A stretch of 64,000 bases of DNA, from NCBI GenBank assembly GCA_963682135.1, contig OY821645.1, positions 832,001 to 896,000 on the forward strand, in the 5' to 3' direction. Position 1 is the stretch's first letter, and each line of letters opens with the position of its first letter. Source of the stretch: Methanothrix sp. (GTDB lineage Archaea; Halobacteriota; Methanosarcinia; Methanotrichales; Methanotrichaceae). The translations under genes were made by a program, and so were the position numbers. Positions 18,556 to 22,219 of the stretch are shown here, in pieces. Below the pieces are notes generated by a model. That model was given only the letters and a program-made list of their open reading frames with translations. It did no database searches and had not been told where the DNA came from.

Positions 18556-18588
18556 GAAGTCCCCATCCTTCAGGACGCGGTAGTTCAC
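18556..18588 (+). mobile_element. Solo IS200/IS605 right-end remnant
   Basis: GAAGTCCCCATCCTTCAGGACGCGGTAGTTCAC: GAAG guide, imperfect hairpin, terminal TCAC; same architecture as the right end at 47558-47594. Confidence 0.65.
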
Positions 18589-18695
18589 CAACCAGGACCT
18601 TAGTACCAGGACATTTTTGAAACGTCAATACACAATGTTTAATAATGATTAATACTAACAAATACTGGAGAAAATAACTCAGGAGTTGATTGAAT

Positions 18696-19511
18696 ATGCC
18701 CGTGTCAGGAAGGGAAATCGCAACCTTGGATTTTGCGAATCTTATCGGCGGACCCTTGAACGCCGTTGTTGAAGCACAGGCAAAGTCAGCCATAACCACG
18801 GCCAATTTTATAAAGGAAGTAGGTTTTACAAAAGATGGAAAAGTAATTAATGTTGATTTTACATATAACCGTAAAAACGACGATGGAGAAGACCAGCAGT
18901 TCACGCTAACTGTTCCATTCCTTACAATGTTGCCTGTGCCATATATTTCGATAGTAGATGCAGTAATGGAATTCAACGCCAAGATCACCTCTATCAATGA
19001 GTCCCATATGGAGGATAACTTTTCGCAGCAGTTGGATGTAGAGGCAGGAGGAAAGTTATGGTTTATTACCGCCAAGGTACAATCAAAGACTGCGTACCAG
19101 AAGAAGAGCGCTACCTCTGAGAGAGAGGAGCGCACTTTCGACATGCATGTACGTGTTGAAGCAAAGAACCAAGACATGCCATCAGGTACAGAACGCATAC
19201 TTACCCTTCTGGAAAATTCAATCGGCGAAAAGAAAGGGCCGCGTGTGGCGATTTTGAGGATTTTGTCAAGAGATAAGGCAACTATAAAAGTCGAAACCGA
19301 TAGGGACCTCGATGCTCTAAAGGGCCTTACTTTCTCTGCAACGGGTGCTGACAATAAGGCCAATGAATTTAAGATAGAAACCGTTGATAAGGATCGTAAT
19401 ACAATCACACTTAACGGGGAAATAAACAATTCATATCTATTCAAGAGCATCGATGTACCGCTTGGACCACCGCTTAAATCAAAAGAAGAAACATCAACAG
19501 AAAAAAAATGA
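18696..19511 (+). CDS. DUF2589-family protein with extra C-terminal beta-rich domain
   Basis: LDFANLIGGPLNAVVEAQAKSA.TTANFIKEVGF, VPFLTMLPVPYI, FNAKITS, DMPSGTERILTLLE signature. Confidence 0.85.
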   Translation: MPVSGREIATLDFANLIGGPLNAVVEAQAKSAITTANFIKEVGFTKDGKVINVDFTYNRKNDDGEDQQFTLTVPFLTMLPVPYISIVDAVMEFNAKITSINESHMEDNFSQQLDVEAGGKLWFITAKVQSKTAYQKKSATSEREERTFDMHVRVEAKNQDMPSGTERILTLLENSIGEKKGPRVAILRILSRDKATIKVETDRDLDALKGLTFSATGADNKANEFKIETVDKDRNTITLNGEINNSYLFKSIDVPLGPPLKSKEETSTEKK

Positions 19512-19597
19512 GAGAATCGGCTGAATCCTAGCTAAGTGGAGTAGGGCCGTTGGAAATCGCAGTTCTGCGGCCTCTATTTATTTGCTGAGGTGCAGAG

Positions 19598-20626
19598 ATG
19601 GACGAAAAAGCGAAAACAAGATTATCCGATGTACTTGGGGCATTTGTCACCAGCGTGGCTTATGGCAGAAACGTCTCTGATGTGCAAGCGCTGCGCATAG
19701 CTCTCAACTACCAAAAAAATGTTCTTCTGGAGGGGCTCCCTGTTCCCAGGCTCAGATTGTCTCAGGTAAGCATAAGTCTACCTGTTATTTTAACGGAAGT
19801 ATTGCCTGGAGAGCCACCAAAATGGAATCATCCGAAAGACATCACTAAGGTTGCAACCACCTCTTTTCAAACAGAGATTGAGGATGAATTGAAACGCCTT
19901 GAATATTTGGAACGATTAAAAAATCCAATTAAAGAGGAGAAGGATTTATACGAGCGATATAAACGATTCTTGCAGTTTGCAAAAAATCCACAAGACTATA
20001 TAAATTATATAAGGAAGGATCAAGAAAGAAATAAGACATATGAAAAGGAATTCGGCGCAGAGAAAATTACCCCTGCTTATGAGAGCTTTGAAAAAGTTCT
20101 GCTTTCGAGGTTGAATCGTGCTTTTTTAAAACTGGAGATGGATGATAGTTCAAATATCGATGCCGCTATTCGCTACAAAGTGGGAGAGACTGTAGAGAGT
20201 GCCTTTCGCGATGTAATGAGCGAGTTCTTCTTCCGTTATGCGGAACTTAGAATTAAAGTGGAAAAAATAGAACCCCAACAAAAAACGGAAATATTTGGCT
20301 CGGAACAAGAATCTGAGCAAATGACCGCCGATATCCGTCCTAAATTTGATGAGAAAATGGCAAGAAAAGGCTCAGAAAAAATCATGGAATCTGAGATTAC
20401 AGAACGAATGATCGCCGATATTCGTCCGCTGGTCGAGAAAGCAGCGATAGATAAGCCAAGCATTCCACCGGATTTCTATGTAGAGGTGGATACAGACAGC
20501 ATCAAAAATGCCGGTGGAGGGCCAGAGGCAGTCACGCGGCTGAGTATCGTTATGCACGAAGAGGGCCTTGAGTGGCTGTCCGAAGAACAAAATGGATTAA
20601 AGACCAAAAAGTTGGTGCCGGAATAA
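19598..20626 (+). CDS. Hypothetical protein, distant DUF2589-like partner with large helical insert
   Basis: N-term LSDVLGAFVTSVAYGR..DVQA...LPVPRLRLSQVSISLP; C-term VEVDTDSIK...TRLSIVMHEEGLEW. Confidence 0.7.
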   Translation: MDEKAKTRLSDVLGAFVTSVAYGRNVSDVQALRIALNYQKNVLLEGLPVPRLRLSQVSISLPVILTEVLPGEPPKWNHPKDITKVATTSFQTEIEDELKRLEYLERLKNPIKEEKDLYERYKRFLQFAKNPQDYINYIRKDQERNKTYEKEFGAEKITPAYESFEKVLLSRLNRAFLKLEMDDSSNIDAAIRYKVGETVESAFRDVMSEFFFRYAELRIKVEKIEPQQKTEIFGSEQESEQMTADIRPKFDEKMARKGSEKIMESEITERMIADIRPLVEKAAIDKPSIPPDFYVEVDTDSIKNAGGGPEAVTRLSIVMHEEGLEWLSEEQNGLKTKKLVPE

Positions 20627-20627
20627 G

Positions 20628-21227
20628 ATGATCCTCTGTGTCCAAATTGAAAAGCTTGGTTTTCAACTGAGCAAATTAACCCAGCTCATGAATAAGTATC
20701 AGCGCGAAGAGCCCAGTTTTGCAGATGATACGCTTGAGTGGCTCGAAGAATCAGAAAAGGCGATGAGCATTCTGCGCCTGCCGGAGGGATCGGAGATATC
20801 TGTTCTTCGAGGCCGAATTATGAAGGCTGCACATATTTCGAACATTACGGAAGGGCACTCAACTCGAAAGGCCCAACGTCAAGCTCGTGATATTGCAGCT
20901 GCAGAGTCGCTGGAGCGTGCTGAGGCAATCATGCGCGGGCGTTTGCACTCTTCGGAAGAACGTCTCCGGTTCTTTGAGGAGAAACTCTGCGAAGGGATGA
21001 CTGCTTTAATGCTCCAAACACCTCTGCCGGAAAAGACGCTACCGAATATGGAACGATTGAAGCATGTTTGGGAGCTATTGAGGCAAGAAAAGTCCACACG
21101 CCCTCTCGCTCTCTATCTGGCGGCGTCACTTTCTCCATCAGATCGTAGTTTCATACTCTACAGAGTATTAAATCGGGTATATAACGAGGGGCTTGGACAA
21201 CTGCCTTCATCAGAGTCAATTCAATAG
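20628..21227 (+). CDS. Hypothetical all-alpha protein
   Basis: Starts 1 nt after the previous stop; 199 aa, helical. Confidence 0.75.
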   Translation: MILCVQIEKLGFQLSKLTQLMNKYQREEPSFADDTLEWLEESEKAMSILRLPEGSEISVLRGRIMKAAHISNITEGHSTRKAQRQARDIAAAESLERAEAIMRGRLHSSEERLRFFEEKLCEGMTALMLQTPLPEKTLPNMERLKHVWELLRQEKSTRPLALYLAASLSPSDRSFILYRVLNRVYNEGLGQLPSSESIQ

Positions 21228-21239
21228 GATAGTCAGATC

Positions 21240-21259
21240 TTTTTTGATTTTTGATTTTA
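21240..21259 (+). terminator. Archaeal oligo-T terminator after the DUF2589 cassette
   Basis: TTTTTTTGATTTTTGATTTT immediately downstream of the stop at 21227. Confidence 0.5.
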
Positions 21260-21361
21260 TCTGTTCATCAGTATTTTATAACTTAACAATAAAATTTAAA
21301 TCCTGAAAATAACTCAGTACTTAAAATAGGTACGTTGAAAAATTTATTTAGGGTGATATGA

Positions 21362-22219
21362 ATGTCATTTACACTGATCAAAGGAACCTTCCACGTGATT
21401 GGCTACAGCCCTGATGGCGATTCCATCCGGTTCAAGGCCAAAGACCCTGCTCTCTGGAAGAAACTCTCCGGCCCGGCAGTGGAGATGAATGCCCGCGGCC
21501 ATGTCCAACTGCGCATTGAAGCCGTCGATGCTCTGGAGACACACTACCAGGGCGTCTGCCAGCCTCTGCGGCCCGCGCGTGCAGCCACTCGCTTTCTCCT
21601 CACAGAGCTGGGAATCACCGATGTCGTCTGGGATGGACCACACAGTGCAGTGACCAAGGCCCAGGATGCAACTGTGGGGTACATCCTCGCTCGCTGCACA
21701 GAAGGCAGACGCCGCCCGGTAGCCTTCGTTTTTGCCGGTGAGACTGAGGAGAAAGATGGTGCAGAAATCAACCTTGATGACTCGCTCCTCAAAGAGAGCT
21801 ACAACTACCGGCTCCTCGCCCAGGGACTCGCCTATCCCATGTACTATAACGGCCTCTTCTCGGACCTGCGCCTGCCAATGACCAGAGCGGTAGCATCCGC
21901 CCGGACGGAAGGAAAGGGGCTGTGGCCCTATGACAGAACCACGCGGGGATTTTCGGCTTCCCGCCTGAAGAGCATTACCGAGGATGTGGCCATCCTGCCC
22001 AAGCTCTTCCGCCGAATTGTGAATTACATGGGCGAGGGCGGCAAGATTGAGGGCTTCAAAGAGCATCTGCAGAAAACCTGCGAGCCACTGGTACGGATCC
22101 AGCAGGTCCACTTCACAAGATTTGATGCCATCGTTGAGACGAAGGGCGAGAAGGTGAGGCTGGCCGAGGCTCCCGAGAATCTGATATTCATGGACAAGGT
22201 GCTCTGCAAGAAGAGCTGA
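21362..22219 (+). CDS. Thermonuclease (SNase)-family protein, no signal peptide
   Basis: SPDGDSIRF, LRIEAVDALE, LLAQGLAYP, ARTEGKGLW. Confidence 0.82.
   Translation: MSFTLIKGTFHVIGYSPDGDSIRFKAKDPALWKKLSGPAVEMNARGHVQLRIEAVDALETHYQGVCQPLRPARAATRFLLTELGITDVVWDGPHSAVTKAQDATVGYILARCTEGRRRPVAFVFAGETEEKDGAEINLDDSLLKESYNYRLLAQGLAYPMYYNGLFSDLRLPMTRAVASARTEGKGLWPYDRTTRGFSASRLKSITEDVAILPKLFRRIVNYMGEGGKIEGFKEHLQKTCEPLVRIQQVHFTRFDAIVETKGEKVRLAEAPENLIFMDKVLCKKS

Follow-up and report, generated by a model that had tools for sequence, protein, structure and literature searches.

A 64,000-nt stretch of a Methanothrix sp. genome (contig OY821645.1, positions 832,001 to 896,000 of the forward strand), referred to here as the window, carries an inserted cassette of three genes, g1, g2 and g3, the first of which encodes a member of the Pfam family DUF2589 (PF11655). 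The cassette represents a real and widespread three-component system without a studied relative; it is accessory and mobile, and it was acquired horizontally. Its function is inferred here from comparisons of sequences, predicted structures and gene neighbourhoods, and we tentatively favour a regulated membrane pore, which is weighed below against other explanations.

A mobile three-gene cassette in archaea and bacteria

The genome that contains the window is a single contig of 3.04 Mb. The cassette and the open reading frame (ORF) that follows it are laid out as follows, in positions of the window; structural features stem from AlphaFold2 (AF2) models, with predicted local distance difference test scores (pLDDT), where stated.

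18412..21254, plus strand: inserted segment carrying the cassette, ~2.9 kb; junctions approximate (left 18412-18440, right 21243-21254)
18696..19511, plus strand: g1, DUF2589 protein of 271 aa (PF11655 match)
18972..19136, plus strand: g1 residues 93-147, putative Ser/Thr-rich amphipathic beta-hairpin with the Gly/aromatic tip AGGKLWF (from sequence and alignment)
19224..19460, plus strand: g1 residues 177-255, predicted C-terminal small beta-barrel (AF2 block, pLDDT 89-95)
19598..20626, plus strand: g2, partner protein of 342 aa, no Pfam family
20628..21227, plus strand: g3, conserved protein of 199 aa, starting 1 base past the g2 stop codon
21362..22219, plus strand: native 285-aa ORF, downstream of the insertion and outside the cassette

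The GC content is 0.37-0.50 across ~18.4-21.4 kb compared with 0.57-0.62 on both flanks, in agreement with an original prediction, made from the letters of the window, that the cassette is AT-richer than the host genes; the 285-aa ORF lies in the GC-rich part. The genes upstream encode the two halves of a thiamine pyrophosphate (TPP) enzyme (Pfam TPP_enzyme matches), which we read as comDE from these matches and the methanogen context, the earlier reading having been comD. Two genomes of the same genus without the cassette, G010 (locus L091) and G024 (L092), show the empty site: in G010 homology runs through comDE to window position 18375 and resumes at 21254, and in G024 it runs to 18387 and resumes at 21272. 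The spacing from comDE to the region of the 285-aa ORF is only 75-111 nt in these two genomes, and the resumed homology covers both the promoter region and the 285-aa ORF. The cassette is thus a clean insertion of ~2.9 kb, and the span 18556..22219, which had been described as one unit, mixes the AT-rich insertion with a native gene. The cassette had also been placed between comD and a gene for a coenzyme A (CoA)-binding protein; the comDE side of this description stands, while downstream it is the 285-aa ORF that adjoins, and the gene for the CoA-binding protein (Pfam) comes after it.

A pattern-limited scan with the g2 profile, using one genome per species, yielded 79 loci, in which ORFs were called and searched with the profiles of g1, g2 and g3. 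The three genes occur as single copies, in the same order and on one strand, in 69 of the 79 loci, which answers positively the earlier question of whether they occur together elsewhere. Median gaps are 78 nt between g1 and g2 and 6 nt between g2 and g3, with the latter gap being ≤20 nt at 63 of the 69 loci and an overlap at 8. Of the ten exceptions, L003, L006, L073, L075 and L079 are truncated at contig ends, L077 has a g2 fragment only, L016 is rearranged with a second DUF2589 gene, and at L017 g1 is not adjacent and three DUF2589 genes are located elsewhere in the genome. Two more loci appear decayed: in L024, from a Nannocystis metagenome-assembled genome (MAG), both g2 and g3 are broken into two ORFs apiece, and in L007 (Phycisphaerales) a 5′-truncated g2 abuts an unrelated gene, g1 is missing and DUF2589 was not found in the genome.

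The operon starts at g1 and ends at g3. Clustering of 772 flanking ORFs gave generic histidine kinases as the biggest cluster (14 loci) and no other conserved neighbour; a two-component regulator as a conserved neighbour was rejected, these kinases occurring at approximately the chance rate by our own rough estimate. The genes next to the cassette, 64 downstream and 62 upstream, mostly have mixed housekeeping functions (including TusA, QueG, FEN1, MnmE, SspB, SpoT and LexA) or are unannotated, and among them are one cell-wall Amidase_2 protein (downstream, at L038) and one transposase. No conserved protease was present among the flank clusters, and the 126 neighbours include a few unrelated peptidases. 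Many of the downstream genes are convergent and abut g3. In five Thermodesulfobacteriota loci we noticed a fourth gene of ~240 aa on the same strand, 12-38 nt past g3 (L044:8287-9024, L062:3083-3805, L063:2636-3358, L067:8267-8983 and L078:2685-3401); its product had no Pfam match in the four of the five cases scanned, and its N-terminus again resembles a helix-then-strand unit.

Carriers of the 79 loci span at least 10 phyla in two domains. Bacterial carriers belong to Pseudomonadota, Thermodesulfobacteriota, Bacteroidota, Myxococcota, Verrucomicrobiota, Chloroflexota, Bacillota, Chlorobiota, Ignavibacteriota, Planctomycetota (L007) and several candidate phyla, and archaeal carriers to Methanothrix, Methanoperedens and Methanosarcina; cultured carriers include Ferrimonas pelagia JCM 18401, Paraglaciecola aquimarina KCTC 32108 and Tenacibaculum skagerrakense DSM 14836. 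The distribution is patchy close to the window: according to the g3 profile, the cassette is present in 2 of 24 other genomes of the genus and in none of 16 from other families of the class, and DUF2589 as such occurs in 16 of 301 genomes of the phylum (counting G000).

We computed a FastTree phylogeny of the g1 core plus g3 (70 rows, 10 incomplete loci excluded; unrooted, with SH-like (Shimodaira-Hasegawa-like) support only and long branches flagged). The row of the window forms a group with two Methanothrix rows and a single Methanoperedenaceae row (SH-like support 99%), and this archaeal group sits within a 14-row clade of ‘long-form’ cassettes from mixed bacterial phyla. The remaining five archaeal rows fall into a separate clade among Bacillota, Chloroflexota and Bacteroidota, and the archaeal label changes at least 3 times on well-supported branches. 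The empty sites, the presence in 2 of 24 genomes of the genus, the low GC content and the archaeal rows, placed at three or more points among bacterial ones, together bear out the horizontal acquisition that had been proposed. We also observed identical or near-identical cassettes filed under different phyla, namely L008/L009 (Desulfuromonas and a Methylococcaceae MAG, the record names of which hint at one study) and L053/L054 (Crocinitomicaceae and a Bermanella MAG), which reflect either mis-binning or very recent transfer.

The proteins g1, g2 and g3

The assignment of g1 to DUF2589, already part of the original prediction, is supported by a match to PF11655 at E 1.2e-27 and 97.6 bits (cut-off 23) over profile positions 3-154 of 154, and a scan of the window's own genome found DUF2589 in single copy, at 99.4 bits. 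The listed ORF opens at TTG; an ATG follows two codons later, with GGAG ten bases before it, and is the likely start. The core of the protein (residues 1-180) is highly conserved, and the small beta-barrel at its C-terminus varies. Across the core, 34 aligned archaeal and bacterial relatives are 47-80% identical to g1, with 47 invariant columns, which, in view of the horizontal movement, suggests that the product is tightly constrained and independent of the host.

Within this core lies the putative hairpin, the base of which (FNAKITS) and the tip residues W122 and F123 are invariant in the alignment of g1 relatives (A2). Its arms are rich in Ser/Thr, small or hydrophobic residues alternate with polar ones, the beta hydrophobic moment is raised, and near the tip the alternation reads F-Q-L-V-A on one arm and W-I-A-V on the other. 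Other DUF2589 subfamilies have GWGP or GWGWG at the tip of a hairpin of the same design. An amphipathic hairpin of membrane-spanning length, as in beta-barrel pore-formers, is hence present in g1 as a sequence pattern only. The peptide previously quoted for a hairpin-like stretch is indeed found in the g1 translation, and the hairpin is modelled very unsurely: residues 102-141 have a pLDDT <50, and the core blocks over 81-160 reach 34-62. Residues 102-141 are thus left unplaced in the predicted monomer, as would be expected of a segment that becomes ordered only within an oligomer.

The added C-terminal beta domain that had been predicted for g1 appears in the AF2 model as the confidently placed strands at 177-255. 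Among relatives this small barrel occurs in 0 to 3 copies. Its best match in structure comparisons with VIA is a lambda tail-tip protein (Z 7.0, rmsd, the root-mean-square deviation, 3.1 over 72 residues), followed at Z 5-7 by barrels resembling domain 2 of EF-Tu and by C-terminal domains of tail-tube proteins; the fold is generic and the tool rates this Z range as common. The C-domain of one g1 relative matches Pfam Phage_attach at E 7e-7. The g1 model had no Foldseek match in the PDB at E ≤0.001, and VIA gave none to the core, which is poorly modelled. Searches with the g1 profile against the sequences of solved structures gave nothing at E ≤1, and a protein atlas search with g1 gave no usable match.

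The AF2 model of g2 (pLDDT 81.6) has a helix at 9-40, the motif LPVP at 47-50, a strand at 56-69, a helical insert at 79-282 and C-terminal strands at 284-341. Thus, the predicted layout of a helix and an LPVP strand split by a helical insert stands, with the insert measuring ~204 aa instead of the ~250 aa assumed earlier. The N-module of the family has the consensus SDVLGALVxSVAxAR..., LPVPRLR and then the strand, while the C-module (284-342 in g2, with the motif EEGLEW and ending in LxPE) follows the consensus PDF.V.VDT..IKNAGGGP..VTRL....EEGLEW...L.PE and is conserved to the last residue. The variable helical middle sets the length of g2, from ~225 to ~410 aa among relatives. Of a library of 1.84 billion, 1138 representative proteins match the g2 profile at E ≤1e-3, and the majority of these are short (220-235 aa). 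Against Pfam, g2 matched nothing, including PF11655 at E ≤10, and NCBIfam and PHROGs gave no meaningful match. Precomputed matches to PF27375 were noticed on 4 of 89 g2 relatives (P0010, P0023, P0025 and P0061), and PF27375 is therefore a recently built model that covers part of the g2 family. Foldseek found no match of the g2 model in the PDB or BFVD at E ≤0.001, and its VIA matches are generic helical bundles only (Z ≤6.7, under the noise mark of the tool for helical proteins).

Is g2 related to DUF2589? By eye, the AF2 models of g1 and g2 share a layout of a long N-terminal helix, LPVP, a long strand, a variable element and a strand of the type F.V.V., the variable element being the hairpin in g1 and a helical bundle in g2. 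BLASTP of g1 against g2 gave no match. Profile comparison with hhalign aligned only the LPVP stretch, both for g2 (A1) against g1 (A2), at E 0.067, and for the short g2 forms against A2, at E 0.16. Broader profiles, built from 102 DUF2589 sequences (including pairs from the archaeal family f7) and 95 g2-type sequences, aligned over 55 columns at the LPVP strand with P 1.8e-4 and a probability of 48%. This borderline alignment speaks for the kinship claimed in the original prediction, and the lack of any PF11655 match among 68 short g2 forms at E ≤10 speaks against it; a distant link of g2 to part of the DUF2589 domain is possible.

The family f7, from the same phylum as the window (L095-L103), offers a second setting for the g2 N-module. 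In all nine loci, the gene after two adjacent DUF2589 genes (~190 and ~165 aa) encodes a protein of 131-157 aa, the N-terminus of which is rich in Lys, Arg and Glu and which includes a g2-like module of a helix plus a strand. Searched within a small set of ORFs, these proteins match the g2 N-module at E 6e-11 to 4e-4, and the two matches inspected score 35-37 bits. The g2 N-module so appears to recur as a partner of DUF2589, and it may be a distant copy of part of that domain. No relative of g3 was found within 3.5 kb at any f7 locus. The cassette thus resembles the DUF2589 gene pairs in that g1 is a full-length family member with the same Gly/Trp-tipped hairpin and that a g2-like N-module follows the f7 pairs. 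It differs in having one DUF2589 gene instead of two, a partner that PF11655 does not recognise and a third gene; moreover, the cassette type is cellular and was found neither in viral contigs nor beside lysis genes. The literature that we found on DUF2589 consists of passing mentions, with none found for PF11655 or PF27375: a table of differentially expressed genes in PMC11402942 includes a B. fragilis DUF2589 gene, and a passage in PMC3949148 refers to ‘DUF2589 related genes AF0414-AF0417’ induced on lactate in Archaeoglobus fulgidus.

The start codon of g3 (ATG, 20628), a single base beyond the g2 stop codon, is in line with the translational coupling proposed earlier. The 32 relatives of g3 are 49-89% identical to it, and several of them sit on contigs that equal in length those listed for g2 relatives; Y24, D33, W38, E43, R87, E99, R103, K119, E122, D172 and R173 are invariant and C121 nearly so. 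No family was found for g3 in Pfam, NCBIfam, PHROGs or PADLOC, its best sub-significant matches being NCAB1 (E 0.036) and a 103-aa chain of a solved structure (E 0.016), and in the protein atlas it falls into unnamed clusters only. None of the three profiles matched the sequences of solved structures below E 0.016. A transmembrane helix is absent from g1, g2 and g3 (the maximal 19-residue Kyte-Doolittle mean is 1.66, in a proline-bearing strand region), and there is no signal peptide and, in the library scans, no recognisable enzyme domain or ATPase. All three are accordingly predicted to be cytoplasmic. A complex prediction for g1(1-182) with g2, run without controls, scored 0.01 against a mark of 0.32, a value that weighs neither for nor against binding.

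Elements and genes around the cassette

Two further features border the cassette.

18538..18585, plus strand: hairpin element of ~48 nt, derived from the IS200/IS605 family (TnpB), inserted after TTTAAC upstream of g1
21239..21262, plus strand: T-runs T6, T5 and T4 just past g3, a likely archaeal termination signal that overlaps the right junction of the insertion

The repeat at 18524-18590 has at least 17 more matches in its own genome, with a conserved palindromic core. Some copies are solo; others are paired 1.3 kb apart around a 395-aa TnpB ORF (loci L082-L088), which matches OrfB_IS605 (E 2.7e-25) and Cas12f1-like TNB. Being multicopy, TnpB-flanking and hairpin-forming, the repeat has the properties of an end of an IS200/IS605-family element, and it is one of a family of ~50-65-nt hairpin repeats that stem from the ends of an IS605-family element with TnpB only. 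The earlier claim of a solo IS605 right end upstream was correct as to the IS605-family repeat; the term ‘right end’ cannot be applied to it, since LE-like and RE-like flanks are both present. In two related Methanothrix (L002 and L006), the region upstream of the cassette is homologous apart from the hairpin element, which is missing at the corresponding place. Because these cassettes do without it, the element is a later, strain-specific hitch-hiker and not the vehicle of the cassette. This repeat is also a point at which DNA assemblies of the strain break off.

Oligo-T tracts terminate archaeal transcription, and both the T-runs and the AT-rich spacer previously described between g3 and the next ORF are present. 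An 18-nt direct repeat (GAAAATAACTCAG...) was noticed at 18670-18687 and 21305-21322, just upstream of g1 and of the 285-aa ORF, respectively, and both start regions finish in a similar TGAAT(A)TG. It is probably due to chance or a shared leader motif; a target-site duplication was rejected, as the repeat could not be extended on alignment. Parts of g1 and g3 are covered by contigs that two studies obtained from RNA libraries and that are 90-99% alike (4 of 5 at ≥95%). This is a weak hint of transcription, as such libraries can contain DNA; other parts of the stretch are uncovered, a gap that is no sign of silence.

Separate from the cassette, the 285-aa ORF belongs to the native core genes of the genus. 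It was found in 25 of 30 other genomes of the genus sampled and in 13 of 14 good-quality genomes (counting G000), in keeping with the earlier suggestion that it is independent of the cassette. Its designation as a thermonuclease is not supported by score: the match to Pfam SNase (PF00565) is sub-threshold (E 0.26, 12.2 bits with a cut-off of 21) and restricted to residues 144-188, and no nuclease appeared among solved structures, whether the search used the sequence of the ORF alone or a profile of six rows. Pfam, NCBIfam, PHROGs and PADLOC gave no meaningful match. By eye, the motifs DGDS and AVDALE recall the staphylococcal-nuclease family, to which the ORF may be distantly related.

Possible functions of the cassette

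Taken together, we tentatively read the cassette as a regulated pore, a function that we regard as possible rather than probable: a putative self-contained cytoplasmic assembly in which the g1 hairpin would form a membrane pore that is held in check by g2 and g3. In such an assembly g1 would be the oligomerising subunit, and the hairpins of several copies would together build a beta-barrel, inserted into the cytoplasmic membrane from within the cell. The g2 protein might dock on g1 through the shared helix-then-LPVP-strand module, as a cap or adaptor with its variable helical insert facing outward, and g3, translationally coupled to g2, might act as a third subunit, sensor or stabiliser. A trigger such as infection or stress would then free g1, leading to permeabilisation of the cell, so that the cassette would be a device for regulated suicide or lysis. 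The fixed operon, the accessory mobility, the hairpin design and the lack of an enzyme domain or transmembrane helix fit this model. With no recognisable enzyme, ATPase, membrane anchor or export signal, the proteins would have to function by binding each other or something universal, e.g. the lipid bilayer, and a device that needs no host-specific partner could move between bacteria and archaea.

Known pore-formers provide partial analogies. Bacterial gasdermins are cytoplasmic, signal-less pore-formers of abortive infection that stay inactive until triggered and then form a pore of beta-hairpins from the inside. The working idea for g1, a signal-less cytoplasmic hairpin protein and putative inside-out pore, is the same; however, no sequence or fold match of g1 to gasdermins was obtained, g1 lacks a conserved neighbouring protease and is far more conserved, and membership is not claimed. 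Beta-barrel toxins of the aerolysin and haemolysin types are secreted. With these g1 shares the Ser/Thr-rich alternating hairpin with an aromatic tip, whereas it has no signal peptide but two conserved partners, and no matching fold or family was obtained for it, its core being poorly modelled.

Several observations weigh against a pore. No solved pore-former matched g1, with the core model being too poor for this comparison to count as a test, and both arms of the hairpin are rather polar. Pore-forming effectors and defence proteins are usually far less conserved than the g1 core, the 47-80% identity of which between archaea and bacteria fits a structural polymer better. The g1-g2 homology behind the proposed docking is borderline. 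Among the 126 immediate neighbours only 2 are defence-linked (Cas6, 1.3 kb away, and TIR_2), none of 135 pattern matches to g2 in viral contigs was confirmed, and no g2 relatives were found in plasmids. In PADLOC-DB 2.0, g1, g3 and the 285-aa ORF had no match, a g2 match to PDC-M18A (E 0.002, in the helical insert) was rejected because it was not reproduced in 25 relatives, and these relatives gave three scattered matches (E 0.003-0.005) to SduA, AbiEi and HEC-04, so that no consistent match emerged from the 4 + 25 proteins scanned. With this result and mostly housekeeping genes as neighbours, the original suggestion of a defence role finds no backing.

Nearly as likely, though again far from assured, is a non-lethal tube, filament, sheet or cage in the cytoplasm or apposed to the membrane. 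The g1 hairpin would then be an inter-subunit arm, comparable to those in phage tail tubes and capsid loops, while the g1 barrels and the g2 insert would be outward decorations. This would suit the housekeeping neighbours and the very strong conservation of the g1 core and g3 across domains while surface-like parts vary. Long g2 proteins are paired with a g1 that bears the C-domain in 13 of 14 loci, compared with 1 of 56 short-g2 loci, an association that counts as one event because the long-g2/C-domain loci form one clade. The g1 C-domain also resembles decoration domains of phage tails and tail tubes (Z 6-7), and the Phage_attach match in one relative points the same way, but these structural matches concern a generic small barrel in a range that is common for the tool. 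The comparison with phage tail-tube and Hcp-type proteins is similarly divided: a conserved core with a long hairpin and a variable small C-terminal beta domain are shared, whereas matches were confined to the generic C-terminal barrel, the poorly modelled core gave none and no phage genes lie nearby. A useful cell structure would not be expected to be accessory and so patchily distributed (2 of 24 genomes of the genus), and an organelle would seem to call for more than three genes, here without assembly factors or an ATPase. A polymer therefore accounts better than a pore for the conservation and worse for the patchy distribution.

Rather improbable, in our view, is a toxin-antitoxin-like or regulatory complex, or a g3 that is an enzyme or nucleic-acid-binding protein with g1 and g2 as its scaffold or sensor, with neither pore nor polymer involved. 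In favour are the small size, self-contained make-up, mobility and tight coupling of the module, and the many invariant charged and aromatic residues of g3, along with the near-invariant C121, are what an active or binding site might show. Yet g3 has no significant match in Pfam, NCBIfam, PHROGs, PADLOC or the sequences of solved structures, ~800 aa in total is large for a toxin-antitoxin pair, and the conserved g1 hairpin would go unexplained. A domesticated phage lysis or release module that opens the membrane for a wall enzyme or another cargo without an export signal is very improbable: 1 of 64 downstream neighbours is an Amidase_2 protein, but this is the only wall hydrolase among the 126 immediate neighbours, no g2 relative was confirmed in viral contigs, 50,697 phage records contained a single weak g1 match (32.6% identity), and the empty site is clean around a 2.9-kb insert without phage genes.

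Returning to the regulated pore, the idea can be extended to all DUF2589 cassettes as a universal, self-contained perforating device that forms putative inside-out beta-barrel pores in bacterial membranes as well as in the ether-lipid membranes of archaea. We consider this extension speculative and, as it stands, unlikely; a pore active in both membrane types would account for a cassette that crosses the domain boundary.

The cassette described here comprises three proteins without a studied relative or a matched solved fold, and the family of g2 counts 1138 representative clusters. The presence of the cassette in cultured strains makes its function directly testable at the bench. If the polymer is correct, the cassette would encode a new prokaryotic cell structure; if the pore is correct, it would represent a new class of effector in microbial conflict and, to our knowledge, the first beta-barrel pore system described in archaea and acting on archaeal membranes.

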